Position numbers and translations under genes: made by a program
Shown: piece by piece, positions 22,109-54,129 of the stretch
Layout: every line of letters starts with the position of its first letter
How positions within the stretch are numbered: position 1 is the stretch's first letter
Virus record (IMG/VR): IMGVR_UViG_3300026094_000002
From: a virus
Lineage: Duplodnaviria; Caudoviricetes
Reading direction: 5' to 3' (one strand)
Length of the DNA: 64,000 bases
The notes under the pieces: generated by a model
The model's input: the letters and a program-made list of their open reading frames with translations, nothing else
What the model was told of the DNA's origin: nothing
The model's database searches: none

Positions 22109-22427
22109 AGAATTTAACCAACAAGAAAACAAACCGGTTGAAATAGAGTTTCGTTTATATTATAATGAGTATGGTTATCCGTTGTTTTATACAACAGAAA
22201 AAGTGTCTGGGAAATATATCGTTATAGACCGAGACACTTATGTTCGTGGAGATTACCAAAACATCAAGGTGAAAGATGGTCGTATTTTACAACAAAACCC
22301 CACTGATTCAATAAAGTTAGTACATGATGATTCGGCGGGAACTTGTTGTTTAAAAAATGACATTACACTAATTGACGAGTCTGGACAGGGACAATATTGG
22401 AAATTAAAAACACATGAATATCGTTGA
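22083..22427 (+). CDS. Hypothetical protein (114 aa)
   Basis: ORF overlapping both neighbours in operon style; GAGGA upstream. Confidence 0.6.
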   Translation: MTNFWQGLEEFNQQENKPVEIEFRLYYNEYGYPLFYTTEKVSGKYIVIDRDTYVRGDYQNIKVKDGRILQQNPTDSIKLVHDDSAGTCCLKNDITLIDESGQGQYWKLKTHEYR

Positions 22428-23337
22428 TATTGCAGATTTGGATTGTATATTTTTAACATATGACGAGCCCAAGAAAGAAGAATTTTGGACTATTGTAAAA
22501 AACACAGTGCCATGGGCAACCCGCGTTGATGGCGTAAAAGGCTCTGATGCAGCACACAAAGCAGCAGCAGAAGCCAGCGAAACTGACCGCTTTATTTTAA
22601 TTGATGGTGACAACCTACCAAATCCAGATTTCTTTGACTTGCAGTTAGAATTTAAAAACGAGCAACAGGAACAAGCAGTTTTTAGATGGAGAGCAAGAAA
22701 TAACATCAACGGATTAATGTATGGAAACGGCGGCATAAGTTCTTGGACAAAAGATTTTGTGCGAGAAATGAAAACTCACGAAAACTCCGATGGTTCTGAC
22801 AAGACCTTAGTAGAGTTTTGTTTTGATGACCGTTATTGGGCAATGCATGACTGTTATTCTACAACATATCCCAACGGTTCGGAATTTCATGCATGGAGAG
22901 CAGGATTCCGCGAAGGTGTTAAAATGTGCCTTGACAGAGGATATTGCCCTTCTGTCTCTGAATTCCGTGACAGAGTACATGATAGAAACCTTGACCACCT
23001 AAATATTTGGCAAAATGTTGGTTTAGATGTTGAATACGGTGCTTGGGCAATTGCCGGTGCTCGTCAGGGAACATTTTTAACAATGTTAGATAATTGGGAT
23101 TACAGAAATGTTCAGGATTTTTCTTACCTCGCTGATTTTTGGAATAGCGAAGTGCAATCTAAAAATCCGCATGATTTGATAAGTGAGTTTGGTGAACGCC
23201 TATGCCAACAATTAGATTTAACTGATAACTTACTTGATGAAAACGCCAGTAAATTTTTTAAGTATCACTATCGTCCAAATTGGAAAAACATTGGACCTAT
23301 GGTAACCGAGCGTCAAGCAATTACTGGTGTCGTGTGA
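22414..23337 (+). CDS. Glycosyltransferase-like protein (GT-A)
   Basis: DCIFLTYDEP, RVDGVKGSDAAH, FILIDGDN (DxD); homologous to the C-terminal domain of 40636..43053. Confidence 0.6.
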   Translation: MNIVDIADLDCIFLTYDEPKKEEFWTIVKNTVPWATRVDGVKGSDAAHKAAAEASETDRFILIDGDNLPNPDFFDLQLEFKNEQQEQAVFRWRARNNINGLMYGNGGISSWTKDFVREMKTHENSDGSDKTLVEFCFDDRYWAMHDCYSTTYPNGSEFHAWRAGFREGVKMCLDRGYCPSVSEFRDRVHDRNLDHLNIWQNVGLDVEYGAWAIAGARQGTFLTMLDNWDYRNVQDFSYLADFWNSEVQSKNPHDLISEFGERLCQQLDLTDNLLDENASKFFKYHYRPNWKNIGPMVTERQAITGVV

Positions 23338-24209
23338 CCGATTCTCAAAAGCCGACTCTTCCTTTTGTTGAAACCATGCTAACTCAAGCGTGTAATCTTT
23401 CTTGCAAAGGTTGTACAAACTTTAGCGATCTCAGTCACAAGGGGTATGTCACATGGGCAGAAGGAAAAGAATGGCTAACCGAATGGAAACAGCGTATAGA
23501 GATCCCAGACTTTGGCATCATGGGTGGCGAACCACTAATAAACCCTGAGTATAAAGATTGGCTTATTGGTGTTAGAGAGATGTTACCAGATAGCCAAATA
23601 AGATTTACTACCAATGGATTATTACTAGAAAAACACTGGGATGTATTAGATGTTATACAAGACATTGGTAATACAGTTTTTAAAATAACTGTTCATGTGG
23701 ATGACAAAAAATTAGAAAACACGATCCAAAAAATATTTGAAAAATATGACTGGGAACCAGTATTTGAATTTGGAATTCATCGTTGGGCCACAAAAAACGG
23801 GCTGCGGTTTCAAATAAACCGCCCGGACAAATTTATTAAAACTTTTAAAAATGATTATTCTCACATGTCGCCATGGCATGCTAACCCAAAGGATGCATTT
23901 GACAACTGTATACAGCAGACATGCCCTCTATTGCATAATGGAAGAATTTACAAGTGTAGCACTTCTGCTTTAATAAAAGACACACTAAGTCGTTATGACT
24001 TTCCAAATTGGAAAGAGTGGGAGCCATACATGTCAGAAGGAATACATTGGACAAGTGATGATACCCAAATTGACACTTTTATTAATAACTTTGGCAAGCC
24101 AAATAAAATATGTGCCCAATGCCCATCAGCCAGTCAAACAGATTCTATAGTTGACCACAAGATATATGTAAGTACCCGCAAAGTGAAAAAGTATATTACT
24201 AATGAGTAA
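23334..24209 (+). CDS. Radical SAM protein 1 (probable GTG start at 23334)
   Basis: CNLSCKGC (CxxxCxxC), MGGEP, FTTNG; extra C-terminal Cys (TCPLL..GRIYKC, ICAQCP); GTGA overlap with the previous stop. Confidence 0.9.
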   Translation: MTDSQKPTLPFVETMLTQACNLSCKGCTNFSDLSHKGYVTWAEGKEWLTEWKQRIEIPDFGIMGGEPLINPEYKDWLIGVREMLPDSQIRFTTNGLLLEKHWDVLDVIQDIGNTVFKITVHVDDKKLENTIQKIFEKYDWEPVFEFGIHRWATKNGLRFQINRPDKFIKTFKNDYSHMSPWHANPKDAFDNCIQQTCPLLHNGRIYKCSTSALIKDTLSRYDFPNWKEWEPYMSEGIHWTSDDTQIDTFINNFGKPNKICAQCPSASQTDSIVDHKIYVSTRKVKKYITNE

Positions 24210-25623
24210 AAATAATTCAGGCGATGAAGTAGATAACAACTTCAAGTCAAAATTTCTTTCTGATGCCGAAAAAATGAAGGAAAAGTTGGACGATGTCAGT
24301 CCGTCTATGTGTCTTGCTAAGTGGAAGCAAGTTAGTCTTCACTTAACAACTGGTCACAACAATAGTTGTTATCATCCTCCATTGCATAAAATTGATGCCA
24401 GTGAAATAACAAAAAATCCTGCAGCATTGCATAATACTCAACACAAAAAACAACAGCGTAAGTTAATGCTGGGAGGCACTCGTCCAACGGAATGTAGTTA
24501 CTGTTGGGCAATGGAAGATAATAATAAATTGAGCGACCGACATTATCGCTCTGGAGAACCGTGGGCTGCAGAACATTTTGATAATGTAGTCAATGCAGAC
24601 TGGGATGCTGATGTAACTCCAAGTTATGTTGAGGTAAATTTTAATTCTGCTTGTAATTTAAAATGTAGTTATTGTAGTCCGCAGTTTTCTACTACATGGA
24701 TGGAAGAAATAGATAAGCACGGTGCATATCCTACGTCTGTACCACATAATGCTCCTGAATATTTTAACGGTGATAGACGCAGAATTCTAAACCGTGAGTC
24801 TAATCCTTATGTAGACGCATTTTGGAAGTGGTGGCCAGACTTGTATCCAGAACTAAAGCATTTTAGGATGACAGGTGGTGAACCTCTTATGGATAAAAAT
24901 ACCTATCGTGTATTTGACCATGTTTTGGAAAATCCAAAATCTGATTTGCATCTAGCGGTGACAAGTAACTTTTCTGTCAATCAAAAATTATGGGACAAGT
25001 ACAAACAGTATGTAAGCAAGTTGTGTGAAGGTGAAACAATAGAACATTACATGCAATATGTCAGTGTTGATACATGGGGTGCCCAAGCAGAGTATGTTCG
25101 AAATGGGCTAGATTTTGGTCTACTATGGGATCGTGTTCATGAATTTTTAAATGATATTCCATACAGAAATTCTCTTACGTTTATCATAACTATGAACAAT
25201 CTATCTGTTCCTAATCTGGATAAACTTCTAGAGGGAATTTTAGAACTAAGAAAAACATATAGCGACACTTATCAGAGAATCTGGTTTGATACGCCAGTGT
25301 TGCACACACCAAAATGGCAAAGTATGCAAGTGCTTCCAGATAGCTATGCGTTTAAATTAAAAAAAATTAAACAGTGGATGGAAGAAAACATTGAAACAGA
25401 ACAATCTAGATTCCATGGGTTTAAGGATTACGAAATCAATAGACTAGATCGTGATATTGCATGGATGCAAGAAGAATTAAACGAAGAAGACAAAAAGCAG
25501 AGAATGGCTGATTTTTATAGATTTTTTTCTGAGCACGATTCCAGACGTTCAACAAATTTTATAGAAACTTTTCCAGAGATGTCAGAGTGGTGGCAACAGT
25601 GCAGGTACTCTGCAAATGCATAA
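24202..25623 (+). CDS. Radical SAM protein 2 with an N-terminal Twitch/SPASM-like domain
   Basis: CLAKW..SCYHP..CSYCW upstream of CNLKCSYC; TGGEP. Confidence 0.9.
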   Translation: MSKNNSGDEVDNNFKSKFLSDAEKMKEKLDDVSPSMCLAKWKQVSLHLTTGHNNSCYHPPLHKIDASEITKNPAALHNTQHKKQQRKLMLGGTRPTECSYCWAMEDNNKLSDRHYRSGEPWAAEHFDNVVNADWDADVTPSYVEVNFNSACNLKCSYCSPQFSTTWMEEIDKHGAYPTSVPHNAPEYFNGDRRRILNRESNPYVDAFWKWWPDLYPELKHFRMTGGEPLMDKNTYRVFDHVLENPKSDLHLAVTSNFSVNQKLWDKYKQYVSKLCEGETIEHYMQYVSVDTWGAQAEYVRNGLDFGLLWDRVHEFLNDIPYRNSLTFIITMNNLSVPNLDKLLEGILELRKTYSDTYQRIWFDTPVLHTPKWQSMQVLPDSYAFKLKKIKQWMEENIETEQSRFHGFKDYEINRLDRDIAWMQEELNEEDKKQRMADFYRFFSEHDSRRSTNFIETFPEMSEWWQQCRYSANA

Positions 25624-27346
25624 TACTTTTTCTTACGAAAATATAACAGAATTTCAAATTGAGGTAACCACACATTGTAATGCTGCTTGTCCACAATGTC
25701 CTAGGAATATTAATGGTGGAGAGACAAACCCATACCTTGAGGTTCAACATCTCAGTAGAGAAGTAATTGATTCTACTTTTGACGAATCTTTATGTAACCG
25801 CCTAAAACAAATATTTTTCTGTGGAAGTTACGGTGACCCGATTGTTCATCCTGAGTTTTTGAATATAATAAAAGATTTTAGAAAAAAATCTGATACCTTG
25901 TGGATTTATATTCATACCAATGGTGGAGTAAGAAATACAGAGTGGTGGAAAGAACTTGCTGAGACTATTGGCGATTATGGAAAAATTGATTTTAATATTG
26001 ACGGGCTAGATGATACGAATCATTTATATAGAAGAAATGTATCATTTGATAAAGCAATGGAAAATGCAAAAGCATTTATAACTGCCGGAGGCAAAGCACA
26101 ATGGAATTTTATTGTGTTCAAACACAACGAACACCAAGTTGACACTGCAAAAATGATGAGTAATTTGTGGGGATTTGAGAATATTGTCTTTCGTGGTACT
26201 GGGAGATTTCTTGATCATAAGACACTAGAAAAATCTGATGAGTGGAAGGTCACCCCAAAAAGAGGAACGGAGTACTATCTTAAACCAACAGATATTAAAA
26301 GGTATTCAAATCAAAGCATTGAAAATTTGCCAAATCTAAAAAAACAATACACAGATATTAAAGACTATTTTGATAAAACGCCAATAAAATGTGATGCTTT
26401 AACTGGAAAAAAGGCAGTAATAACAGCAGAAGGATTAGTTCTGCCTTGTAATTTTTTTGAACATAATTTATATGATGCGAGGTTCAAAGACGAAAGTGTA
26501 ATGCCCCGGGCAAACGAATTGCATTATGATGAAAACGGCAATAATCAAGTTGAAGAATTTATTAAAAAGTACGGAAAACAGAATCTAAGTATATATCACA
26601 ATTCATTAAAAACTATATTCAAAAATCCGTTTTGGGATGATCTTATAGATTCATGGAATAAAGATATTGACAATGGAAGATTATTTGAATGTGCATTTAC
26701 TTGTGGACAGAAATTAACTAAAACATGGGATCAAAATAAAACAGTGGCTAATACATATAGATATTATATTACAGGTGATAACAGAGGTTTAGGAAAGGCA
26801 TTAAAAGAACATTTCTACGGTGATGGCTCTAGCAGAAGCACAGGATATGATATAACTAATCCAGAGCATATCAAATTAATTGCAAAAGAATCATTGCATT
26901 ATGATGTTTTTATCAATAATGCATTTGATGGTCCACCAGATGAAGATTGGGCAAATTTTGCTCAGATTAATCTTCTTCATGCAGTATTTGATGAATGGAA
27001 ATTACATGAAAAAACTGGATGGATATTTAATATTGGTAGTATAGCAGAAAAAGCAATTGTTGCAGCAGAGCCAAAATGGGAAAGATACAGAGTAGCAAAG
27101 AGTGCATTGAGTTATGCCAGCAAACAATCAAGTACTGCTTTTAAAAATAATCTTGTAAATTTTAAGACAACACTAATAACACCTGACAGGTTAGACACAG
27201 AATTATCAAGATCAAAGCCAACATGGACTGGTAATGGCATCTCTTGTGATGATATTATCAGGTTTATAGAATATTGCACATCAATATCTTCTAACACGGT
27301 AGTTGACGAAATCTCATTATCGGTTAACTTTGATTACCAAAACTAA
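25616..27346 (+). CDS. Radical SAM protein 3 (C-terminal SPASM-like Cys) fused to a short-chain dehydrogenase domain
   Basis: CNAACPQC, IHTNG, KCDAL..GLVLPC..ECAFTC; then ITGDNRGLG, FINNA, NIGS, YRVAK. Confidence 0.85.
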   Translation: MHNTFSYENITEFQIEVTTHCNAACPQCPRNINGGETNPYLEVQHLSREVIDSTFDESLCNRLKQIFFCGSYGDPIVHPEFLNIIKDFRKKSDTLWIYIHTNGGVRNTEWWKELAETIGDYGKIDFNIDGLDDTNHLYRRNVSFDKAMENAKAFITAGGKAQWNFIVFKHNEHQVDTAKMMSNLWGFENIVFRGTGRFLDHKTLEKSDEWKVTPKRGTEYYLKPTDIKRYSNQSIENLPNLKKQYTDIKDYFDKTPIKCDALTGKKAVITAEGLVLPCNFFEHNLYDARFKDESVMPRANELHYDENGNNQVEEFIKKYGKQNLSIYHNSLKTIFKNPFWDDLIDSWNKDIDNGRLFECAFTCGQKLTKTWDQNKTVANTYRYYITGDNRGLGKALKEHFYGDGSSRSTGYDITNPEHIKLIAKESLHYDVFINNAFDGPPDEDWANFAQINLLHAVFDEWKLHEKTGWIFNIGSIAEKAIVAAEPKWERYRVAKSALSYASKQSSTAFKNNLVNFKTTLITPDRLDTELSRSKPTWTGNGISCDDIIRFIEYCTSISSNTVVDEISLSVNFDYQN

Positions 27347-27347
27347 T

Positions 27348-28691
27348 ATGAGTATGAATCCAGATTTAAAATTTAAAAAAGAGGTATTAGACAAAAAAAG
27401 TGAAAGTTTTTGTGCGGCTAAATGGTACAATGCTACTATATGGTTAGGGTCTGGTATGACAACGAGTTGTCACCATCCACCAGCCCATCATGTATCCGCT
27501 GATGATGTAAAGAAAAATCCAAAACTTCTTCATAATACTGATCAAAAAAAGAAAGACAGACAGCAAATGATTGCCGGTGAGCGACCACCGGGTTGTGAAT
27601 ATTGCTGGAAAATAGAAGACATGGAAAAAGATGCTATAAGTGATCGTGTCTATAAAACAAAAATATATTCACAAAAAGAAATTGATGATGCTTTCAATAT
27701 TCCAGTCAATGAAGATGTTGATTTAAAAACATTGGAAATTAGTTTTGATAGAACATGTAACTTTGCGTGCTCTTACTGTAACCCTGCGTTTTCTACAACA
27801 TGGGTCAAGGACATCAAGAAAAACGGGTCATATGGTGGGCTACAATCTGATGGTAGAAATCACTTTACTCATACACATGATTCTGCACAACTTTTTAAGT
27901 TTAAAGATACAAATCCGTATGCTGAAGCATTCATGCAATGGTGGGAATCTGATTTGCATAGAACCCTGCAGGAACTGCGAATAACTGGTGGTGAGCCTTT
28001 ACTATCTGGATATACATGGCAGTTGTTTGATTGGTTTAACGAGAACAAAGGTAAAAGTAATACTAGGCTGGCAATTAATTCTAATCTTGGGATAAATCGC
28101 AAAGAGGTTGACAGGTTATTGGATGCAACACAGAATGTTGAACTAGACTTATATACCTCAAATGAATCCATGGGAACACACGCAGAATACATCCGTGATG
28201 GTCTTGAGTGGCAGCAATGGATTGGCAATCTTGAGTACTTGCTAGAAGGCAAACAACTTCGTGGTCTACATTGTATGTGTACTATTAATGCATTATGCTT
28301 AGAAAGTCTGGATGAATTTTTGGATCTAATGTTATACTATAAACAGAATTACGGCAAAGAAGCAGTTAATTTTTCCCTAAATATTCTAAGATTTCCAAGT
28401 TTCCAAAGTGCACTTGTTCTTCCTGATGAAATAAGACAGTCTCGGGGCGATAAATTACAACAATGGTTTGACAAGAACAGTTCGTCAGAATTTTTGCATG
28501 AAATGGAACTAAATCAATTACAGCGATTAATTGACTACCTTGATATTGTAAAAACGCCGCATAGTGAAAGTTTTGAACTTCCAAAGTTGCGTAATGATTT
28601 TAAAAAATTCTTTGAGCAATATGATACAAGACGTGGAAAGAACTTTGCTGATACATTTCCAGAACTAAAGGATTGGTATGAATCTTTATGA
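27348..28691 (+). CDS. Radical SAM protein 4 with an N-terminal Twitch domain (paralog of RS2); start moved to ATG 27348
   Basis: CAAKW..SCHHP..CEYCW; CNFACSYC; TGGEP; ATG 1 nt after the previous stop. Confidence 0.9.
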   Translation: MSMNPDLKFKKEVLDKKSESFCAAKWYNATIWLGSGMTTSCHHPPAHHVSADDVKKNPKLLHNTDQKKKDRQQMIAGERPPGCEYCWKIEDMEKDAISDRVYKTKIYSQKEIDDAFNIPVNEDVDLKTLEISFDRTCNFACSYCNPAFSTTWVKDIKKNGSYGGLQSDGRNHFTHTHDSAQLFKFKDTNPYAEAFMQWWESDLHRTLQELRITGGEPLLSGYTWQLFDWFNENKGKSNTRLAINSNLGINRKEVDRLLDATQNVELDLYTSNESMGTHAEYIRDGLEWQQWIGNLEYLLEGKQLRGLHCMCTINALCLESLDEFLDLMLYYKQNYGKEAVNFSLNILRFPSFQSALVLPDEIRQSRGDKLQQWFDKNSSSEFLHEMELNQLQRLIDYLDIVKTPHSESFELPKLRNDFKKFFEQYDTRRGKNFADTFPELKDWYESL

Positions 28692-30523: not shown

Positions 30524-31813
30524 ATGACATACAATTATAATAGTACTGAACCAGTAAAAATTTCTAGTGATGATTTATCAGAGCGACATAAAGAATTAGT
30601 AACTGAAAGTAAAACTTTTTGCATATATCCTTGGATACATTTACATGCTTATCCAACGGGAGAAGCGTTCCCCTGTTGTCATGCAGAAATGAAAGAAGGT
30701 CCAGTTGGAAATTGTAAAGAGAATACTTTAAAAGAAATTTGGAATTCTAAGGAAATGAAAAATCTTCGGAAAGATATGTTAAATGGGACACCAAATTCCT
30801 ATTGCACAAGATGCTATGAACAAGAAGATTCTGGGTTTTTCTCTGGTCGCCAAAGTGCTAACAAACATCATGGCCATCATATAGACAGAGTTGATGAAAC
30901 TAACGAAGACGGTTCATATGACGAGTTTGCTATGACCTATTGGGATATAAGATTTAGCAACCTTTGTAATCTTAAATGTCGTAGTTGTGGTCATATATTT
31001 TCTAGCAATTGGTATAGCGATCAAGCAAAACTAGCCGGTGAAGACTGGAAGAAACATAATAAAGCACTTAACTTTGCTGGACGATGGGAAACCGATGTAT
31101 GGGAGCAACTTGTTGAGCACTTAGATTATGTTGAACAAATTTACTTCGCTGGTGGCGAGCCACTGTTAATGGAAGAACATTATCGCATTTTAGACGAATT
31201 GGAACGACGTGGAAGATTTGATGTTCGTTTAATTTATAACAGTAACTTTACAGAAACCAGTCTCAAAGGTCGTTCAGTTTTTGATTATTGGAAAAAGTTT
31301 GACTCTGTTGCCGTTGGTGCAAGTTTGGATGCCTCTGGAGAAAGAGCAGAGTATATTAGAAAAGGGACTAAGTGGGATAAGGTATTAAGAAATCGTGAAG
31401 AAATGTTGGAAACATGTCCTGAGGTTGATTTTTATATTTCACCAACGCTTTCAATAATGAATGCATGGCATTTGCCCGATTTTCATCGTGACTGGGTAGA
31501 AAGAGGCTTTATCCGTGCCCAAGATCTTAATGTTAACATCTTACAAGATCCAGTGCATTATAGAATAGATATTGCTCCAGATGCGTATAAGCAACAATTA
31601 AAAGAGAAGTATGAAGAGCATTTAAAATGGTTGCGACCATTTGATAAACTTAATCGGGCCTCTGTGGGGTTTGAAAGTGCTATATCTTTCATGATGTCTA
31701 CCAATAATCAACATCTGATTCCTGAGTTTTGGGCACGTACAAGACAACTAGATGAAATTAGAAAAGAAGATATTTTAGACATATTACCAGAACTAAAGGC
31801 TATAGCGGTTTAA
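30524..31813 (+). CDS. Radical SAM protein 5 with an N-terminal Twitch/SPASM domain
   Basis: CIYPW..PCC..CTRCY; CNLKCRSC; FAGGEP. Confidence 0.9.
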   Translation: MTYNYNSTEPVKISSDDLSERHKELVTESKTFCIYPWIHLHAYPTGEAFPCCHAEMKEGPVGNCKENTLKEIWNSKEMKNLRKDMLNGTPNSYCTRCYEQEDSGFFSGRQSANKHHGHHIDRVDETNEDGSYDEFAMTYWDIRFSNLCNLKCRSCGHIFSSNWYSDQAKLAGEDWKKHNKALNFAGRWETDVWEQLVEHLDYVEQIYFAGGEPLLMEEHYRILDELERRGRFDVRLIYNSNFTETSLKGRSVFDYWKKFDSVAVGASLDASGERAEYIRKGTKWDKVLRNREEMLETCPEVDFYISPTLSIMNAWHLPDFHRDWVERGFIRAQDLNVNILQDPVHYRIDIAPDAYKQQLKEKYEEHLKWLRPFDKLNRASVGFESAISFMMSTNNQHLIPEFWARTRQLDEIRKEDILDILPELKAIAV

Positions 31814-33021
31814 TGAAAATTCCTCATGAAAAGTTTTGTGTTTTGCCTTGGGTTAGTATGGAGACTAGCCCTACTGGAACTGTAAGACCATGCTGTTTGG
31901 CTGAGGATGAAATTGCTGATGATAATGGCAACCCATTTGAACTTGCTAGTGCACCATTTTCTCAAATTCAAAATAGCAATCATATGAAAACTCTCCGCAG
32001 AGAGTTTCTTGACGGCAAACGGCCTAATACTTGTCAAAAATGCTGGAATGAAGAAGATGCTGGAAGAACCAGTAAAAGAATGCACACGCTGGATCGCTTA
32101 AAACACATTATACCAGATAATATACAGTGGAGCGAAGAGGCAGAGCCACTAATGTTTCTAGATTTAAAACTGGGGAACATATGCAACTTAAAGTGCAGAA
32201 TATGTGGCTCATGGTCTTCGAGTGCATTTGCAACAGAAGAACTTCAAAGTATGCCACGTGAGCAAAAAAAGTCCAGTTTTCAATACATGATGCTAAAAAA
32301 AGGTGCATGGCCAAGAGAGAAAACAGAATTCTGGGATGAATTAGAAAACATATTAGACCAAATACGCTACATTGAATTTACTGGCGGTGAGCCTTTTATG
32401 ATAGGCGAGCATTTTGAATTGCTCCAAAATTTAGTAGATAAAGGAATCGCCCCACAAGTTGAAATACACTATAATACAAATGGGACACATTTCCCAGAAC
32501 ATGCAATCGATACTTGGAAGCATTTTAAACATGTAGAGGTTGCTTTTAGTATTGATGATGTTGGAGAAAGGTTTGAGTACCAGCGGACCAATGCTATATG
32601 GAATGAGGTTGAAGATAATATTGCTAGATTTAAGAAATTAAGAAAAGAGTTGAATAACATGTCTTTGCAGGTATGTTCAACAGTAAACGCTTACAATGTT
32701 TACTATCTTTCAGATTTGGCACACTGGATTGATCAGCAAAACTTTGATTTTATCTATTGGAATATGTTACACGAACCTCATTATCTTAGTGTCAGTCGCT
32801 TACCAAAAAAAGCAAAAGCGTTTGCGATTGAATCGTTAGAGCAGAGTGATGTTTCTACGCGGCATCGTTTAGAGTTTAACCATATCATTGATTTTATCAC
32901 TAATGGTGAAACAACAGACGGTTCTGAACTGCTAGATAATATAAAATTGCTTGACGATAGGAGAAATGTCAACCTCGCCGATTCTCACGAAAAGTGGGCA
33001 GAGGTTCTAGGATATGGATAA
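31813..33021 (+). CDS. Radical SAM protein 6 with an N-terminal Twitch/SPASM domain
   Basis: CVLPW..RPCC..CQKCW; CNLKCRIC; TGGEP; YNTNG. Confidence 0.9.
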   Translation: MKIPHEKFCVLPWVSMETSPTGTVRPCCLAEDEIADDNGNPFELASAPFSQIQNSNHMKTLRREFLDGKRPNTCQKCWNEEDAGRTSKRMHTLDRLKHIIPDNIQWSEEAEPLMFLDLKLGNICNLKCRICGSWSSSAFATEELQSMPREQKKSSFQYMMLKKGAWPREKTEFWDELENILDQIRYIEFTGGEPFMIGEHFELLQNLVDKGIAPQVEIHYNTNGTHFPEHAIDTWKHFKHVEVAFSIDDVGERFEYQRTNAIWNEVEDNIARFKKLRKELNNMSLQVCSTVNAYNVYYLSDLAHWIDQQNFDFIYWNMLHEPHYLSVSRLPKKAKAFAIESLEQSDVSTRHRLEFNHIIDFITNGETTDGSELLDNIKLLDDRRNVNLADSHEKWAEVLGYG

Positions 33022-34324
33022 GCCAGAAAAAAAGCCTGAAACGCTTTGTATGGCTCCATGGGTACACACATATCTAAGCCCTCAAACAGAGAGAAGAATG
33101 TGTTGTGCAAGCAGAGAACCAGCACAAAATTTTGAACAGTATATAGATACAGAATCTGGAACGGGAGAGTATAATCCTCAGGCTTTAGATGAACACTGGA
33201 ACAGTGACCACATGCGATCTGTTAGACGACGCATGATGGCTGGCGAAACGCTTCCTGAATGTGAGGTTTGTAATAATAAACTCTTGAATACTGATGTGTA
33301 TCGTGATTATTTTTGGCACTTATTTCGTCGTCGGTATGATGAAATATGGGAATCGACTGACTCAGATGGTTACACACATATGAAGCCTATTTCTTGGGAT
33401 TATAGGTTTTCTAACTTATGCAATTTTAAATGCCGTATGTGTGGGGATATGCTTAGTTCTGCATGGGAGTCAGAGCAAAGACAACAAAATATGATCAATT
33501 GGCACGATCCAAAAAATAATTGGATGAAGCCAGAAATAAGAAAGCAAATATCAAAATTTCAAGATACACAAATTGAAAAAGAATTTTCTGATGCTGTAGA
33601 AGAGCACCGTGTTGAAGAAATATATTGGGTAGGTGGTGAGCCTCTTATGTATGAACAACATTGGCGATATATGAAGCGTATTGTTGATTTGGGCGATGGC
33701 CCGGGACTTTATGCCAGATATAATACAAATCTAAGTCGTGTGAAGTATAAAGGCATTGATTTATTTGACGACATACTCTCTAACATTAGAGATTGGCAAA
33801 TATGTGCAAGTTTAGATGGTACTGGACCTATTGGTGAATACATTCGTACTGGGCTGAATTATGAACAATGGTTAGAAAATTTTAAAAGAGCAATCACTTA
33901 TGCAAAGAATCGTCGTCAAGTAAGATTAGACTTTACTCTTACTCTGCCCGGGCTATTTGAAGTTCAAAATATTCAAGACTTATCACAAAATCTTGGTGTT
34001 GATATCCTAGCAAAAGTAATATTCAGTTTTGGACCAGATATATTTTTGAGTCCATTAGCACTTCCAAGAACAGTACTAGACCGTAAGGTTGATGAAGTCA
34101 GCGATGGGTTGCCAAATGGTGCACTTAAAGATGTTCTACTACAACTTAAAACTAGACCCACATTTGAAGAACAATGGCCAGATACGTTTGTAGATGGGTT
34201 AGCAGCAGGAAAGTCCAGAATACTTCAATTAGAGAAAATTAGAACACAGCCAACAACAATGGCATATATATTAGAAAAGGACCCAGAAATTTATGAGTGG
34301 TGGAAAAACATTAGATCAGATTGA
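33014..34324 (+). CDS. Radical SAM protein 7 with an N-terminal Twitch/SPASM domain
   Basis: CMAPW..RMCC..CEVC; CNFKCRMC; VGGEP. Confidence 0.9.
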   Translation: MDKPEKKPETLCMAPWVHTYLSPQTERRMCCASREPAQNFEQYIDTESGTGEYNPQALDEHWNSDHMRSVRRRMMAGETLPECEVCNNKLLNTDVYRDYFWHLFRRRYDEIWESTDSDGYTHMKPISWDYRFSNLCNFKCRMCGDMLSSAWESEQRQQNMINWHDPKNNWMKPEIRKQISKFQDTQIEKEFSDAVEEHRVEEIYWVGGEPLMYEQHWRYMKRIVDLGDGPGLYARYNTNLSRVKYKGIDLFDDILSNIRDWQICASLDGTGPIGEYIRTGLNYEQWLENFKRAITYAKNRRQVRLDFTLTLPGLFEVQNIQDLSQNLGVDILAKVIFSFGPDIFLSPLALPRTVLDRKVDEVSDGLPNGALKDVLLQLKTRPTFEEQWPDTFVDGLAAGKSRILQLEKIRTQPTTMAYILEKDPEIYEWWKNIRSD

Positions 34325-35378: not shown

Positions 35379-35494
35379 TGTTTAAAAAAATAAAGAAATT
35401 TATCACACGCATTTATAACAAAATCAAATTAGAAATACGGTATAGAAAAAAATTACGCAAATTGCGTAAACGTGACCCATTCATATATAAATGA
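35378..35494 (+). CDS. 38-aa highly basic peptide (MFKKIKKFITRIYNKIKLEIRYRKKLRKLRKRDPFIYK), not in the ORF track
   Basis: TAATG overlap with the upstream stop and ATGA overlap with the carbamoyltransferase start; exactly fills the gap. Confidence 0.75.
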   Translation: MFKKIKKFITRIYNKIKLEIRYRKKLRKLRKRDPFIYK

Positions 35495-36996
35495 GCTACA
35501 TCTTAGGAATCAGTTCTGGATTTCATGATGCTGCAGCAAGTGTCGTTTCCCAAGACGGAGAAATAGTTTTTGCCGGTCATAGTGAAAGATATAGTAAAAA
35601 GAAAAACGACCCTAATTTACATCCTGCACTTATAAAAGATGCAATGCAATGGGATGTATCTTCTATTGCATATTATGAAAGGCCGTGGATGCACAATGTG
35701 CAAAAAATACGAAGTGGTCAGTATGGGTTGACGCCGTGGTCAACACGAGGTGTTTTAAAACAACAGTTAAATTCATATGCAAAACCTCTGTTAAAAAAAT
35801 GTAGTATTTCACGATTTTCACACCATCTCAGCCATGCAGCAGCAGGATTTCAAACATCTCCGTATGAAGAAGCTGCTGTTGTTGTTATTGACGCAATTGG
35901 GGAATTGGACACAATATCCATATATCATGCGTCATATGATGCTAATGGTATCGCACAATATAAAAAAATGTGGGGGCAAAAGTACCCTCATAGCATAGGT
36001 CTATTTTACTCTGCTATCACACAGGCGATTGGATTAAAACCAATGGAAGATGAATATGTCACAATGGGTATGGCAGGTTGGGGGTCCGACTTTGGTGCTG
36101 TGATGATGAAAAGTGACTTCTTTATTGACATATCAACGGGTGAATTAAATCAAAATCTTCATATGGGCATTGACAATAGTCATTTTAAGAAAAATCAATA
36201 TATTCGTGCCAATAAAGAGAATATCGCTGCAAGTGCTCAGAGAGTAGTAGAAGAGGCAATATTAGAAATAATGCGACGGGCTAAAAATCTTACCAAATCT
36301 GAAAATTTGGTTTTTATGGGTGGAGTTGCTTTAAACTGTGTTGCTAATAGTCGTTTGGGTGTTATATTTCCAAATATGTGGATAATGCCTAATCCGAGTG
36401 ATGCAGGGTCAAGTTTGGGTGCAGCAGCACTACAGTATAAAAAGCCATTGAAATGGAAAGATGCATATCTTGGTCACGAAATTCCCGGCGAATATCCAGT
36501 CAATGATATTGTTGATAGACTGGTAACTGATAAGATAGTTGGTGTAGCATCAGGCAGAGCAGAGTTTGGTCCAAGGGCACTTGGAAACAGAAGTCTCTTA
36601 GCAGACCCGCGTGGCAAAGATATAAAAGATAGAGTAAATGAAATAAAGAAAAGACAGAAGTTTAGGCCATTTGCCCCAGCAATATTAGAAGAGCATGTAG
36701 ATGATTATTTTGAAATGCCGGGCAATGTTTCTACAAGTCCTTATATGCAGACAGTTGCCAGAGTTAAACATCCGGAAGACTTCCCAGCAATAACGCATGT
36801 AGATGGTACTGCACGAGTTCAAACAGTTCCAGATGATGGGTCAGGATTTAGAAAGTTGCTGGAACTATGGTATGTCTGGTCAGGATGTCCAATGCTGTTA
36901 AATACCAGTCTTAATATACGCGGTGAGCCGATGGTTAACGACAGACAGGATGCTGACAGATTCCAGAAGAAATACGGCGTTACTGTTTGTAGTTAA
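35491..36996 (+). CDS. Carbamoyltransferase (NodU/CmcH family)
   Basis: ILGISSGFHDAAA, HHLSHAAAG, GGVALNC, GRAEFGPRALGNRS, RPFAP, HVDGTARVQTV, LLNTSLN. Confidence 0.95.
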   Translation: MSYILGISSGFHDAAASVVSQDGEIVFAGHSERYSKKKNDPNLHPALIKDAMQWDVSSIAYYERPWMHNVQKIRSGQYGLTPWSTRGVLKQQLNSYAKPLLKKCSISRFSHHLSHAAAGFQTSPYEEAAVVVIDAIGELDTISIYHASYDANGIAQYKKMWGQKYPHSIGLFYSAITQAIGLKPMEDEYVTMGMAGWGSDFGAVMMKSDFFIDISTGELNQNLHMGIDNSHFKKNQYIRANKENIAASAQRVVEEAILEIMRRAKNLTKSENLVFMGGVALNCVANSRLGVIFPNMWIMPNPSDAGSSLGAAALQYKKPLKWKDAYLGHEIPGEYPVNDIVDRLVTDKIVGVASGRAEFGPRALGNRSLLADPRGKDIKDRVNEIKKRQKFRPFAPAILEEHVDDYFEMPGNVSTSPYMQTVARVKHPEDFPAITHVDGTARVQTVPDDGSGFRKLLELWYVWSGCPMLLNTSLNIRGEPMVNDRQDADRFQKKYGVTVCS

Positions 36997-39528: not shown

Positions 39529-40637
39529 GAATTAATGTCCTTTTTTATATTGTTTAGCATAGATGTTAATTCTTTCCATAAGATATTCTTAAAAACTCCG
39601 TTATAAAAATGATTATAATTAAATTTTAATGTTGGAATCATATGTTTATACATTTGATTTAATTCTTTAGGAGTAAGATCGTCTAAATTTTTGGTTAATT
39701 TTGCTATTTTTTCAATTCTCAAAATATCATCTTCTTCGGTATCGTAATCTTCAGACCAGAATTCTGAGAATGTTTTAAATCCATATGATTTCAAATATTC
39801 TAAACTATATGCAGTAGAAACAAGAATAAATGGCATATACATACAAATTGGCTTGAATATTTTCTCTGTAAGATGATTTCTTTTTCCAGAAAAAACAGTT
39901 TCTGTAACAATGTATGCGAGGGATTCAAAAGACTGATCAAATAATCCAAGCGTATAACTTTCCATTGGATGATTTTCTTCACCTGAAAAGTTCCATGGTA
40001 AATTAACAGAGCCTAAAACTTTTTCAATATCTGGATATGTATTTCTATATCTTCTTCCAATTTTTGATGCGAACTCATTTTCATATGGGCAAACTTGTGG
40101 CATACTAATTTTTGCATTGGTAATATTGTTTTTTACCATATTGTAGAACAGTAGTACTCTGTGGTTTCTCTTGCCGCCTATAATCCTATTAGGACTTATA
40201 AAACTTGATTTTATTTTTCTTGACTCTGGGGGTTCAATAGTGAAATCATAGTTAAAACCTCTAAACCATTCTAATGCCGCCCATCCATGAAAAAAATAGT
40301 AATAATCATCCCAACCATATATGTTGCAGACCTCATTAACTTCATCGCTATTTTTTTCACTGTGAATTAATATTTTTTTGTTTGAATTAAAATTATCAGT
40401 TATATCTTTATTTCTTTTTTCAACATCATCAAAAAGCGGTTTATGCACATCTAAAAATATTGGCTCTTGGTCGTGAAGGAATATATAATTATATTCAGTT
40501 ATATCATGACCATAATTCATTAAGTTTTCGGGGTCAGTTGTCCCCGGCGGATCACAAAAAAATAACCGAGTTTTAGGGATATTCTTATCAATATAATTTT
40601 TGAAAATATTAACGTAAATTTCTTCTATTCTTATCAT
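39525..40637 (-). CDS. GT10-like 'TEK' glycosyltransferase paralog 4
   Basis: YIVTETV..HLTEKIFKPICMYMPF..YGFKTF..SEDYD. Confidence 0.55.
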   Translation of the reverse strand: MIRIEEIYVNIFKNYIDKNIPKTRLFFCDPPGTTDPENLMNYGHDITEYNYIFLHDQEPIFLDVHKPLFDDVEKRNKDITDNFNSNKKILIHSEKNSDEVNEVCNIYGWDDYYYFFHGWAALEWFRGFNYDFTIEPPESRKIKSSFISPNRIIGGKRNHRVLLFYNMVKNNITNAKISMPQVCPYENEFASKIGRRYRNTYPDIEKVLGSVNLPWNFSGEENHPMESYTLGLFDQSFESLAYIVTETVFSGKRNHLTEKIFKPICMYMPFILVSTAYSLEYLKSYGFKTFSEFWSEDYDTEEDDILRIEKIAKLTKNLDDLTPKELNQMYKHMIPTLKFNYNHFYNGVFKNILWKELTSMLNNIKKDINS

Positions 40638-43053
40638 GTTTGATGTATTTTACTTTGATAAAAAGCCAAACGTGTTTTCTCATGAAATCCACGTGAAAAG
40701 TATAGATGAGGCTAGAGAAAAATCTAAAACCAGATACTTTTGGATTTTGAATTACTTATCAGACTATTCTTGCTTTGATTTTATTTGGGAACCCGTTCCG
40801 TGGGAAAGTGAGTTTATTCACGCTTGGCCAAGCCAGTGGCAAAAAGATGGTCAAACATATCTAGTACCAAAAGAAAAATCTGTTGGCACAAAATACCACA
40901 AAAATATTATCCCTAGAATACTATCAGAAAAAAATTGGGAAATACCAAAAGATTGTATTGATGATAATTTTGATTTTACTTGGCATCCAGACCCAACTGA
41001 ACCACCATACATATATCAATTCGGTACTCAACACCAAAAGACAGGTGGCCCTAGATATGTCGTTCCCAATGCAACAGAAGTAAAATATGAAAGAAGCACA
41101 ATAGTTAAAAAAACTTCCATTGATAATAACTGGGAAATCCCCTCTGATATTGATGTAAATAATTTTGACTTCACATGGCACCCAGACGAAACAGAATCAC
41201 CATACATATATCAATTCGGTACTCAACACCAAAAGACAGGTGGCCCTAGATATGTCATGGAAGGTGCGACTGAAACAAAATTTATACGTGGCATAAAAGC
41301 CAAAAAAACCTCTATAGATGATAATTGGGAAATTCCTACAGGTGTCACATTTGAAGAGTTTGATTATACTTGGCACCCAGACGAAACAGAATCACCATAT
41401 ATCTATCAATTCGGCACTCAACACCAAAAGACAGGTGGTCCTCGGTATAGAATGTCTGGTGCCACAGAAACAAAATTTATACGCGGGATAAAAGCCAAAA
41501 AAACTTCTATTGATGATAACTGGGAAGTATCACCAGACATTGATGTGGAAAACTTTGATTACACTTGGCACCCGGATGAAACGGAATCACCATATATCTA
41601 TCAATTCGGCACTCAGCACCAAAAAACTGGCGGACCTAGATATATCACAAAGGGTTCTACAGAAACAAAATTTGTTCGGAATATATACGCTAATGTTAAA
41701 AGCAGTCCGGCAAAAAAAGTTTTTTTCATTGATCATTATGACGGGAACATTGACAAATCAATAGAATCTGTCAATTCTACAGACCTAGAAATATTAAAGA
41801 CACGGTATTCGTCAAATTATTTGAGTACAATAAGAAGAATAGCAAAGAAAGTTGGCGATGATTCTGAATACATTTGGATTTGTTCTTCGGTTTGTGATTA
41901 TACTGATTTTAATTTTTCTTGGCACCCAGAGCAGTGGCAGAGCAACATGGTCCATGTATTTCCAAGTAATGAGCAAAAATTCGGAGATACTTTTTTTATT
42001 CATGTGCCTTCAATCTTGGATCAATTAGATGTAGAATTATTAGAATGGCATAATATAAATTTTCTATCTGACATCTCAGTACCTAGATGGAATTGTCCAG
42101 AAGTAAAACACGATGATGATAGCCATATTGATGTGATAAAAAATCAAAATTTGCTGGCACCATTAACAATATTCTCTTGCGATAATGTCAATACTGATGA
42201 TATTAAAAATACCCCAACTGTTCCACTATGGGAAGAAAAAACAAAAACAATAGTACCACTATCAGATGGGGGATCTTCAGTTATAGTTCCCAGAGAAAGT
42301 ATTGCTTTTATTAATGATCAATTATATGATTATCCTTATATAGATAAAACTTTTTCTGGGATATGCGATGATAAACCATTAGACATTGTTTTTATATCTA
42401 ATGGTGAAACTAATGCAGAAGAAAACTGGGAACATTTACTCAGTGTTACTGCTGATAAATCAAATAGGGTTGCGAGAGTAGATGGTATAAATGGGCGTGT
42501 AGCGGCTTATCAGGCTGCTCTTGAGGAAAGTAATACCGACTGGGCATTTTGTGTGTTTGCTAAATTAAAAGTCAATCCAGAGTTTGATTGGTCGTGGCAA
42601 CCTGATAGAATGCAACAAAGAAAGCATTATATATTTCATGCAAAAAATCCAGTCAATTTTCTGGAATATGGTCATATGGCAATGATCGCATATAACAAAA
42701 AATTAACACTTCAAAACACAGGGGGTGGATTAGATTTTACACTTGACCAAGAACATGATGTAGTGCCACTACTAAGTGGAACAGCGGAATTCAATAATGA
42801 TCCGTGGATGACATGGAGAACGGCATTTAGAGAGTGTTTAAAGTTGCGTGATAGTTTGCCAAATATTGAAAACGAATATCGCTTAGAAACATGGCTTTCT
42901 GTCGGTGATGGCAATAATGGAGATTGGAGTGTCCGTGGTGCAGAGGATGCAGTGAGATATTACGAATCAGTGAATGGTGACTTTGAAAAACTCAAGTTAA
43001 GTTATGAATGGAAGTGGTTACAAGAGTTTTTTAATCGCGAGTACTCTCAATAA
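40636..43053 (+). CDS. Multi-module glycosyltransferase-like protein with four 65-aa tandem repeats
   Basis: C-terminal DIVFISNGE..RVDGINGRVAAY..WRTAFRECLK is homologous to 22414..23337; internal repeats. Confidence 0.7.
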   Translation: MFDVFYFDKKPNVFSHEIHVKSIDEAREKSKTRYFWILNYLSDYSCFDFIWEPVPWESEFIHAWPSQWQKDGQTYLVPKEKSVGTKYHKNIIPRILSEKNWEIPKDCIDDNFDFTWHPDPTEPPYIYQFGTQHQKTGGPRYVVPNATEVKYERSTIVKKTSIDNNWEIPSDIDVNNFDFTWHPDETESPYIYQFGTQHQKTGGPRYVMEGATETKFIRGIKAKKTSIDDNWEIPTGVTFEEFDYTWHPDETESPYIYQFGTQHQKTGGPRYRMSGATETKFIRGIKAKKTSIDDNWEVSPDIDVENFDYTWHPDETESPYIYQFGTQHQKTGGPRYITKGSTETKFVRNIYANVKSSPAKKVFFIDHYDGNIDKSIESVNSTDLEILKTRYSSNYLSTIRRIAKKVGDDSEYIWICSSVCDYTDFNFSWHPEQWQSNMVHVFPSNEQKFGDTFFIHVPSILDQLDVELLEWHNINFLSDISVPRWNCPEVKHDDDSHIDVIKNQNLLAPLTIFSCDNVNTDDIKNTPTVPLWEEKTKTIVPLSDGGSSVIVPRESIAFINDQLYDYPYIDKTFSGICDDKPLDIVFISNGETNAEENWEHLLSVTADKSNRVARVDGINGRVAAYQAALEESNTDWAFCVFAKLKVNPEFDWSWQPDRMQQRKHYIFHAKNPVNFLEYGHMAMIAYNKKLTLQNTGGGLDFTLDQEHDVVPLLSGTAEFNNDPWMTWRTAFRECLKLRDSLPNIENEYRLETWLSVGDGNNGDWSVRGAEDAVRYYESVNGDFEKLKLSYEWKWLQEFFNREYSQ
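40933..41712 (+). repeat. Four in-frame 195-bp tandem repeats (NWEIP..FD[F/Y]TWHPD.TE.PYIYQFGTQHQKTGGPRY)
   Basis: The WHP Trp codons fall at 40981, 41176, 41371 and 41566, exactly 195 bp apart. Confidence 0.95.
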
Positions 43054-52581: not shown

Positions 52582-54129
52582 TTAGTATTTTGATTTAGGT
52601 ATTTTAAATAATCTTTCTTTATATTTTCTGGATATATCTTCTCTTTTTGATACAAGGGAATGCCAATCAAAAGTTTTTATTGTCTTGTTAAAGGTGTGTT
52701 CTAGATCAACGCCAGTTATACATGCGTAAAATGCGGATAAACTGCTGATTTTTTTCTCAGCGACATTATTTCCTTTAACGATATAATGGTCAGCTAGATG
52801 GATACATTCAGTTAAGCATGTGTGTTGATTCTCCCATCTATAAGATTTTAAACTTTGATCCCATTCTAATAACGTGTACCCATATTGTGAGTAATTTAAC
52901 TCTATTTTACTTAAAAATTTTTTTTGTAGAGGCCCTATCATTAGTGGAAATATGAGCCAGCTATCCAATCCGCTTTCTCCAGCAACTAACATATCCCCAG
53001 TTTTTTTCATGCTCTCTACTGGTTCTTCTGGGAGTCCAAAGATAAATGTACCATGGAGGGAGACACTGTTTCCATATTTGTTTTTAATATATTTTACGGT
53101 GTCAAACATTTTATCTCTATCACCCCCCTTGCCGATTAACGAAGAAGTTTTTTTGTTTAGTGTTTCGATTCCAAAGTGACAGGCACGGAGTCCGCTATCG
53201 AACAATTTGTCAATGTATTCTTTATGTGCTGTTAATAAATCTAAGCGTATATATGCCCAATATTCAAGTTTAAACGGAAGTTCTTTAGAAATCTGATATA
53301 TTAACTCGATTTTTTCAATGCTGTCGTTAAAAGTATCATCACTAAAGATGTACCTAGTAATGCCAAAATTTTCATAATGGTAAATGAATTCTTTTAATAG
53401 TATATTTTTTAATTTAATGAAATCATTTTTTTTCTTTCCATTTAACGGATATGAACAAAACGCACAATTAAAAATACATCCTCTAGAAATTTCAGTTACT
53501 AATGACTCGTTATCTAATAATAAATCATTTTCATGAAAAAGCATTGGGGTTTCAGAAAAATTATATCCCTCGGCTTTGGCATCATCTATTACTATAGATT
53601 TGTACAAACTCTTCTTGGCGTTTTTTAATGGTTCGTTTTTTGACAAATGATTGGCTAGATTGACAGCAGAGTTGTCTGCGTATCCTATTATAGTGTAGTC
53701 AAAATATTTAATATAAGGCAACACTTGTGCATCAGGTCCACCTAATACTAGTTTACAGTTTTTGTTAAGTGTTTTAATTAAATTAATAATTCTGCTATTA
53801 AATTCTATACCATGTGGCAATAGTGCACCGGGCACTTTTTCGCCAAAACGAATCCCACCGCTCTCCCATTGATTGTCATTATCAATAGTGTTTTGTTGTG
53901 AAATATCTTTATAAAAAAAGGTATTAAATCCAACAAATAATGTATCAGCATCGATAAAGTATTTTAGTGCTTCTTCTATTTCATCAAGTGAAAAAGTATG
54001 TAGAAAATCAATAACTTGTACTTTATAGCCACTATTTCTTAATGCTGCCGCTACTTTATATGGGCCCAATGTTCTAGACAAAAAGACTTCATCAACATTA
54101 TCATTGAGCAATAGAATATTTTTAGTCAT
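52582..54129 (-). CDS. Cobalamin-binding (class B) radical SAM protein, putative methyltransferase
   Basis: N-terminal LGPYKVAAAL..VIDF..LGGP B12-binding-like domain; EISRGCIFNCAFC; FSDDTF; HFGIET; FIFGLP. Confidence 0.88.
   Translation of the reverse strand: MTKNILLLNDNVDEVFLSRTLGPYKVAAALRNSGYKVQVIDFLHTFSLDEIEEALKYFIDADTLFVGFNTFFYKDISQQNTIDNDNQWESGGIRFGEKVPGALLPHGIEFNSRIINLIKTLNKNCKLVLGGPDAQVLPYIKYFDYTIIGYADNSAVNLANHLSKNEPLKNAKKSLYKSIVIDDAKAEGYNFSETPMLFHENDLLLDNESLVTEISRGCIFNCAFCSYPLNGKKKNDFIKLKNILLKEFIYHYENFGITRYIFSDDTFNDSIEKIELIYQISKELPFKLEYWAYIRLDLLTAHKEYIDKLFDSGLRACHFGIETLNKKTSSLIGKGGDRDKMFDTVKYIKNKYGNSVSLHGTFIFGLPEEPVESMKKTGDMLVAGESGLDSWLIFPLMIGPLQKKFLSKIELNYSQYGYTLLEWDQSLKSYRWENQHTCLTECIHLADHYIVKGNNVAEKKISSLSAFYACITGVDLEHTFNKTIKTFDWHSLVSKREDISRKYKERLFKIPKSKY

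Follow-up and report, generated by a model that had tools for sequence, protein, structure and literature searches.

In the biosynthesis of apramycin and tobramycin, the radical S-adenosylmethionine (SAM) 1,2-diol dehydratase AprD4 makes a keto-sugar that is then reduced by the NADPH-dependent reductase AprD3, resulting in C3'-deoxygenation (PMC5461906, PMC13707489). Here, we analyze a gene of a large uncultured marine phage in which a radical SAM domain is joined in frame to a short-chain dehydrogenase/reductase (SDR). The gene lies at positions 25616-27346 (+ strand) of a 64,000-nucleotide stretch of DNA (hereafter the window, meaning the whole stretch analyzed), which is part of the IMG/VR virus record IMGVR_UViG_3300026094_000002 (194.5 kb, estimated to be 56% complete). 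We consider AprD4/AprD3 the best mechanistic analogue of this fusion, as it pairs a radical SAM enzyme with an NADPH-dependent reductase that act consecutively on a sugar. The two systems differ, however, in several respects. AprD4 has a CX3CX3C motif (PMC13707489), whereas the phage protein has CX3CX2C, and the AprD pair consists of separate proteins of actinomycete antibiotic pathways, whereas the phage protein is a fusion. Moreover, the AprD4 model NF033070 is not among the best 25 of 28 NCBIfam matches to the fusion protein.

Two further radical SAM enzymes resemble the N-terminal half. BlsE (7vob), which acts on the sugar nucleoside cytosylglucuronic acid in the blasticidin S pathway, has the same core and a C-terminal extension, but shares only 14-17% identity with the phage protein, matches it by profile in the core only (E-value 9e-5) and has no fused or partner SDR; its model TIGR04466 is likewise absent from the best 25 of 28 NCBIfam matches. 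BtrN (4m7t), of the butirosin pathway, carries one four-cysteine auxiliary cluster in a Twitch domain and oxidizes a sugar-like secondary alcohol to a ketone. Its sequence similarity is weak (E-value 0.03), and it works without an SDR and lacks an insertion of ~80 residues that the phage protein has between the cysteine pairs. The C-terminal half resembles classical SDR ketoreductases (FabG 3nyw, 2bd0, 5u4s) in its predicted Rossmann fold (Z 17.7-19.3, root-mean-square deviation (rmsd) 2.6-2.7 A) and in its TGxxxGxG, NNAG-like, Ser-Tyr-Lys and PG-like motifs. It differs in its length (~195 rather than ~250 residues), in the absence of a modelled helix between beta-2 and beta-3 and in a match to adh_short that stays below the cut-off. 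Among phages, SAR11 pelagimyophages have been reported to carry radical SAM cassettes and lipopolysaccharide-type sugar genes beside their tail-fibre genes (Zaragoza-Solas et al., 2020, PMC7029224). This host recognition cluster is the same kind of setting as that of the window, but the paper mentions only the presence of the radical SAM cassettes and contains nothing on a fusion, on split forms or on chemistry. Our literature search returned no description of a phage radical SAM-SDR fusion, and nothing relevant on phage twitch radical SAM proteins with glycosyltransferases or on jumbo-phage glycans.

Results

The fusion gene is a single intact open reading frame (ORF) running from ATG to TAA and encoding 576 amino acids plus the stop. 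One frame holds CNAACPQC (C21/C25/C28), ECAFTC (C359/C363) and TWDQ (residues 370-373) and continues into ITGDNRGLG (385-393), FINNA (432-436), NIGS (472-475) and YRVAK (491-495), as had been claimed in the original prediction, which was made from the sequence alone. That prediction asked for the junction at ~26700-26760 to be verified; we found neither a stop nor a frameshift there in the assembled sequence, and the linker region at ~26735-26761 reads through cleanly. The ATG overlaps the stop of an upstream radical SAM gene (with an N-terminal twitch domain) by 8 nucleotides, and the TAA is followed by the next ATG after 2 nucleotides, which places the fusion gene inside a tightly packed operon.

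To establish how the two halves occur among relatives, we drew on several searches. A search of 5.8 billion proteins, clustered at 90% identity, gave 2,513 matches to the whole protein, and the best 120 of these are almost all 567-580 residues long, cover 98-100% of the query at 58-95% identity and stem from ENA, JGI, Logan, Tara and NCBI assemblies. More than 100 independently assembled proteins share this in-frame junction, which argues that it is not an assembly artefact. Some of the homologs are already tagged 'radical SAM enzyme/NAD(P)-dependent dehydrogenase' by the automatic annotation of JGI. Searching with the SDR half (residues 377-576) among proteins shorter than 316 residues gave 857 matches; many are complete SDRs of 193-196 residues (57-66% identity), some of them on contigs of 300-356 kb. 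In a set of 1.84 billion representatives at 50% identity, 865 representatives fell below an E-value of 1e-30. One of them is fused (P0242, 586 residues), and the set also holds standalone radical SAM proteins of 376-377 residues (46-55% identity), a standalone SDR of 196 residues (58% identity) and, further down, standalone radical SAM proteins of ~360 residues (31-43% identity), which form a very large family.

The family is mostly viral. In the ESM Atlas, nearly all neighbours of either half come from viruses, and the SDR half belongs to a family of compact SDRs of 180-200 residues that is known almost only from viruses. Among 50,697 deposited phage records, tblastn found none with the fusion, the single match being to a radical SAM core with 27% identity in Pelagibacter phage Mosig, and megablast of 20 kb against the same records gave nothing. 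In PHROGs, the N-terminal half is covered by a generic radical SAM family only, and the SDR half is not represented by any family. Single-sequence scans of species-representative genomes and of IMG/VR also returned no relatives; alignment-based scans did find them, with 337 IMG/VR viral contigs encoding relatives, of which we fetched and examined 80 loci.

In 60 of these 80 viral loci the two halves are fused. In the remaining 20 (L061-L080), they lie side by side as separate genes, in the order of the fusion but not in one frame, with alignment boundaries at query residues 373-377 and 380-385. The radical SAM gene of the split forms ends in ...VWDQGGSKR-stop, and its stop overlaps the start of the SDR gene as ATGA (L062:11100-11125, L064:11105-11125, L073:11090-11110), with a GGAGG within the last codons of the radical SAM gene, just upstream of the ATGA. 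This overlap, together with the GGAGG, indicates that the split pair is translationally coupled. In the fused forms, the stop/start junction is replaced by a linker of ~10 residues, the sequence of which is conserved and differs from the split junction. In a maximum-likelihood tree of the radical SAM halves, the split forms fall into two clades, one with a fused member among them, and at least two changes between the fused and the split state are required. The sister group consists of two Bdellovibrionota loci in which an SDR lies a few hundred bases downstream. Both states which the original prediction had left to be checked thus exist, always adjacent, in the same order and apparently coupled when split. 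That the halves stay together through fusion and fission is our strongest evidence that they act in one sequence of pathway steps, and the fused forms, the adjacent split forms and the bacterial SDR next to a radical SAM gene together show, at the level of gene organization, that the two halves are obligate partners. Judged by its sequence, the protein, a radical SAM domain followed by a linker of ~10 residues and an intact compact SDR, is a real bifunctional enzyme.

We examined conservation in an alignment of 26 full-length homologs with 58-95% identity (A1) and, for the N-terminal half, in an alignment of the broad radical SAM family (A2). All motifs named in the original prediction are invariant across A1. 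The radical SAM half (residues 1-376, 25616-26743) comprises a radical SAM domain and a Twitch-type domain, as delimited by Pfam and fold matches, and standalone homologs of 376-377 residues end at the same point. Its membership of the radical SAM superfamily is supported by the Pfam match (Radical_SAM PF04055 at residues 15-174, E-value 1.7e-12, above the cut-off), by the fold and by the CX3CX2C motif (C21, C25 and C28; 25676-25699), the predicted ligands of the SAM-binding [4Fe-4S] cluster, which is invariant in A1 and A2. The C-terminal extension of this half contains C259-X13-G273-X4-C278 (26390-26449), in which C259, G273, P277 and C278 are invariant in A1 and C259, P277 and C278 in A2. 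This corresponds to the CX9-15GX4C hairpin, a motif common to SPASM and Twitch domains, and places the protein in the SPASM/Twitch subgroup. The other two auxiliary-cluster cysteines are C359-X3-C363 (ECAFTC; 26690-26704), invariant in both alignments. The cysteines had been described as SPASM-like in the original prediction, and this description needs to be narrowed: ECAFTC is indeed conserved, but a full SPASM domain, with its seven-cysteine motif including CX2CX5CX3C, is not present, as the conserved cysteines after the core are C259, C278, C359 and C363 only and Pfam SPASM PF13186 does not match the fusion protein. Four conserved auxiliary cysteines are enough for one [4Fe-4S] cluster, which is consistent with a Twitch-type auxiliary domain with a single predicted auxiliary cluster. 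A fifth cysteine, C69 (25820-25822), which lies in CG(S/N)YGDP, is invariant in A1 and throughout the radical SAM family, even among members with 30% identity; it is a candidate hydrogen donor, cluster ligand or acid/base.

The two halves are connected by residues 374-382 (26735-26761), where the predicted local distance difference test (pLDDT) value drops below 50 at residues 376-379 and where the stop/start of the split homologs falls. The compact SDR half follows at residues 383-576 (26762-27343, ~195 residues), an assignment based on its fold match and on the standalone homologs of 193-196 residues noted above. It has the features of a classical SDR: a Rossmann fold, the cofactor motif TGxxxGxG (T386-G393, TGDNRGLG; 26771-26794), an NNAG-type motif (NNAF, residues 434-437; 26915-26926) followed by an invariant DGPP, and a predicted catalytic set from Ser475 of NIGS to Tyr491-x3-Lys495 of YRVAK (27038-27100). 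Invariant in A1 are T386-G387 and N389 to G393 (TGxNRGLG), N434 to P441 (NNAFDGPP), N472 to S475 (NIGS), Y491, K495, R525, D527 and T528. The last three fall in P523-D-R-L-D-T528 (27182-27199), which we take to be the counterpart of the SDR motif PGxxxT. An adenine-binding D412-I-T is present as well. The Pfam adh_short match to the fusion protein is weak (E-value 0.015, 15.3 bits against a cut-off of 26.6), PF00106 is precomputed on many homologs, and all NCBIfam matches lie far below the cut-off, the families concerned being radical SAM families of SPASM/Twitch type and generic SDR ones.

The likely cofactor preference can be read from two arginines. R390 lies within the Gly motif and R407 follows beta-2; both are invariant in A1. 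Position 404 is variable, and beta-2 does not end in a conserved acidic residue. A basic residue in the Gly-rich motif, just past beta-2 or in both places is the signature of NADP-type classical SDRs. From these residues we infer that the SDR half is NADP(H)-specific and has a reductive role in vivo.

The AlphaFold2 model, for which A1 served as the alignment, reaches a mean pLDDT of 84.7 and a predicted template modelling (pTM) score of 0.66, and its confidence falls only at the linker (376-379) and in a loop (480-483). A Foldseek search of the PDB with residues 1-370 returned BlsE (7vob) first (E-value 6.7e-10), then SuiB, anSME, SkfB and MoaA, and later BtrN; the best structural neighbours of this half are all SPASM/Twitch enzymes. 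In VIA-align, the radical SAM half scores Z 19.7 with SuiB, 18.5 with SkfB, 18.5 over 264 residues with BlsE, 18.0 with MoaA and 17.6 with anSME. Residues 376-576 retrieved classical SDRs in Foldseek, and VIA-align scores them at Z 19.3 with FabG 3nyw (rmsd 2.6 A over 184 residues) and Z 18.3 with sepiapterin reductase 2bd0 (24% identity). The doubt attached to the original prediction, that the C-terminal domain might lack a Rossmann fold, is thus answered by the model, which has a Rossmann SDR fold, although it lacks a helix from beta-2 to beta-3. Nothing beyond generic matches to radical SAM and SDR proteins came from profile searches of PDB sequences.

The operon of the window directly follows tail-fibre-like genes and encodes a hexapeptide acetyltransferase, a carbamoyltransferase, a DegT aminotransferase and a nucleoside diphosphate (NDP)-sugar epimerase/dehydratase. 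Five radical SAM genes surround the fusion. Four of them (24202-25623, 27303-28691, 30524-31813 and 31813-33021) are N-terminal-twitch paralogs that match NCBIfam NF033640 (E-values 1e-93 to 3e-129), and the fifth (33014-34324) is homologous to this family; all five carry a Twitch/SPASM-like cysteine domain at the N-terminus. Tandem arrays of the NF033640 family, with up to 5-8 copies, are also found in metagenome-assembled genome (MAG) loci of Bdellovibrionota, Rickettsiales, Gammaproteobacteria and Parcubacteria (e.g. L092, L093, L097 and L123). The carbamoyltransferase (35491-36996, NodU/CmcH-type) is 47% identical to homologs in three bacterial radical SAM array loci. The ORF at 22414-23337, with which the C-terminal part of 40636-43053 is grouped, has no match in Pfam, NCBIfam or PHROG and is 44% identical to a family of ~260 residues in 18 bacterial radical SAM arrays; it represents a conserved component of the same system. 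On the opposite strand, 52582-54129 (-) encodes a B12-binding-type radical SAM protein that is most similar in NCBIfam to PhpK-like and lipid B12 radical SAM proteins. The window also encodes a 4,662-residue protein, ThyX, a DUF2201/AAA pair and a 5'-3' exonuclease. Neither a T4-type portal nor the large subunit of a class I/II ribonucleotide reductase was found in the phage record, a weak negative given that the record is ~56% complete. The genes next to the fusion in the window are not conserved beside it in other phages, and the context in the window alone cannot define its function.

In most of the T4-like loci, gp47 and gp46 come first, and the fusion or split pair, sometimes preceded by additional genes, is followed by a SegE-like GIY-YIG endonuclease gene, then by baseplate genes and the portal gene. 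The additional genes encode a B12-type radical SAM methylase-like protein of ~500 residues, an ORF of 171 residues and a radical SAM paralog of the same family with ~290 residues. B12-binding-type radical SAM genes like that at 52582-54129 occur in 23 loci (including L067:235-1737), and the ~500-residue gene and the 171-residue ORF often precede the pair. The SegE-like homing endonuclease (PF19835, E-value 1.5e-32, L048:10873-11301) lies directly downstream in 47 of the 80 phage loci and may help to spread the cassette among T4-like phages. A different arrangement is seen in six loci (L010-L014 and L016), where a gene for a 255-residue fusion of an RfaE-domain-II-like nucleotidyltransferase and a mannose-6-phosphate-isomerase-type cupin lies directly upstream (L010:2978-3745, L012:4645-5460). 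This gene follows a Mom-family gene (E-value 1.5e-59), and the clamp-loader genes gp44/gp62 lie downstream where the contig reaches that far. A role in DNA modification is possible in these Mom-family loci.

Bacterial relatives of the radical SAM half (33-47% identity) are found in MAGs of Bdellovibrionota, Myxococcota, Gammaproteobacteria, Verrucomicrobiota and others. The bacterial arrays often hold tandem N-terminal-twitch radical SAM paralogs, a radical SAM family of 380 residues and GT2 glycosyltransferases. A related SDR (32-56% identity) is present in 8 of 80 bacterial MAG loci and adjoins a radical SAM gene of the same family where the gene order was inspected. Relatives of the radical SAM half are also fused to flavodoxin, a WecG/TagA glycosyltransferase, Sel1 repeats, an AMP-binding enzyme or a second radical SAM domain (P0248, P0288, P0254, P0332, P0347, P0381 and P0393). 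A search for longer fusions gave one only, a radical SAM relative in a 1,033-residue flavodoxin-containing 'por' protein of a Symbiodinium record.

Discussion

We tentatively favor a reading in which the N-terminal half carries out a radical dehydration of a nucleotide-sugar and the SDR half a subsequent keto-reduction with NADPH, giving a net deoxygenation. The two halves would act in turn on one small molecule, for which a nucleotide-activated sugar or a precursor of a glycan is the likeliest candidate. In the first step, the radical SAM half would abstract a hydrogen next to a hydroxyl, and the neighbouring hydroxyl would be lost (1,2-diol dehydration) to give a keto-sugar, the ketone of which the SDR half would reduce with NADPH; an unrelated enzyme family would here follow the AprD4/AprD3 logic. 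Fusion or translational coupling would hold the producer and the consumer of a labile keto-intermediate at a 1:1 supply, and in the phage of the window the product would feed the surrounding glycan-tailoring operon. We favor a sugar as the substrate because the fold matches BlsE and BtrN are both sugar-acting and because sugar genes recur in the context, as the nucleotidyltransferase-cupin, the glycosyltransferases, the WecG fusion and the operon of the window show. The chemistry put forward in the original prediction, a radical oxidation followed by an NAD(P)H reduction that together epimerize or deoxygenate a sugar, is plausible, as it agrees with the SDR motifs of NADP type, with the structural neighbours that act on sugars and with the sugar genes in the context.

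Several observations weigh against a sugar deoxygenase. The Z-scores are tied (17.6-19.7) for sugar- and peptide-acting SPASM/Twitch enzymes, and by sequence the fusion protein falls outside the AprD4, BlsE and BtrN families. A fully cysteine-ligated auxiliary cluster, as predicted here, is typical of oxidizing enzymes such as BtrN and anSME and favors oxidation over dehydration. At a pTM of 0.66, the geometry between the two domains of the model is uncertain, and the channelling that the original prediction had proposed is unsupported. Finally, in most of the T4-like loci the gene lies between gp46 and the SegE-like endonuclease with no glycosyltransferase nearby, so that a sugar substrate is not implied there.

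This last observation leads to the alternative that survives best, although we regard it as rather unlikely, namely that the same two-step logic is applied to a non-sugar substrate such as a ribonucleotide or modified-DNA-base precursor, a cofactor or a lipid head group. Most T4-like copies are located amid DNA metabolism genes, either with gp47-gp46 upstream or between the Mom-family gene and gp44/gp62, and their partners are the B12-type radical SAM methylase-like gene and small ORFs rather than glycosyltransferases. The fold and sequence matches moreover include MoaA, viperin-like enzymes and GDGT-MAS. However, T4-like genomes are known to be plastic at these sites, which makes adjacency a weak argument; the gene directly upstream in the Mom-family loci is a sugar-1-phosphate nucleotidyltransferase-cupin, and the contexts in bacteria and in the window are rich in glycosyltransferases.

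It is less probable again that the protein inverts a stereocentre. Here, a BtrN-type oxidation with the auxiliary cluster as electron sink would give a ketone that the SDR reduces from the opposite face, thereby epimerizing a sugar hydroxyl. The four invariant auxiliary cysteines would form a fully ligated Twitch-type cluster as in BtrN, both BtrN and anSME are among the fold matches, and the SDR is intact. Against this, an SDR alone can usually epimerize by transient oxidation, the cost of one SAM per turnover is hard to justify, and the sequence similarity to BtrN is weak (E-value 0.03). To our knowledge, the radical SAM epimerases described so far need no SDR partner.

The order of the two reactions could also be reversed, with the SDR first making a ketone and so activating the substrate for a radical reaction such as a C-C bond formation, a deamination or a rearrangement. 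SDRs are reversible, and the order of domains in a fusion does not set the order of reactions, but R390 and R407, both invariant, point to NADPH and hence to reduction in cells, which makes this order improbable. We see very little chance that the radical SAM half instead modifies a residue of a peptide or protein, as in the maturation of ribosomally synthesized and post-translationally modified peptides (RiPPs), with the SDR processing the product. The top VIA-align matches SuiB and SkfB, as well as anSME, do act on peptides. Yet the protein has no N-terminal extension or RRE domain, the radical SAM core beginning at residue 12; the context consists of sugar genes; and clustering of neighbouring ORFs of at least 80 residues gave no conserved small precursor ORF, although shorter ones would escape it. 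The idea that the fusion is an assembly or frameshift artefact joining two genes, to which the existence of split forms of both might lend some credit, can safely be set aside, given that the two halves are fused in frame in more than 100 independent proteins, drawn from several data sources, as well as in 60 of 80 viral loci, and given a conserved linker unlike the split stop/start junction.

Returning to deoxygenation, we consider a more comprehensive picture possible but on the doubtful side: the protein could be a self-contained, phage-spread deoxygenase, or pair of activities that forms and reduces a ketone, of a new family, using a common host metabolite to make an unusual deoxy- or epi-sugar or, conceivably, a modified nucleotide. 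It could do so within a hitherto unrecognized multi-radical-SAM glycan-tailoring system of tandem N-terminal-twitch paralogs, conserved proteins, glycosyltransferases and a carbamoyltransferase that is common to marine phages, Bdellovibrionota and other bacteria. The shared Bdellovibrionota arrays suggest such a wider glycan-tailoring system.

The logic of a radical SAM enzyme with an NADPH reductase is known; what is new is a mostly viral family in which the two are fused. Among the accessory genes of marine myophages that lack an explanation, radical SAM genes belong to the most common. The fused, split and neighbouring forms provide a 'Rosetta stone' argument for linked activities, and with this partnership an otherwise anonymous radical SAM protein becomes a two-step enzyme that can be tested. 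The radical SAM-SDR pair is abundant in uncultured aquatic phages and makes up a new, mostly viral enzyme family. If it does make a deoxy- or epi-sugar, it would represent a second, evolutionarily independent radical SAM and reductase deoxygenation, and would point to remodelling of surface or virion glycans by large phages of abundant ocean bacteria.

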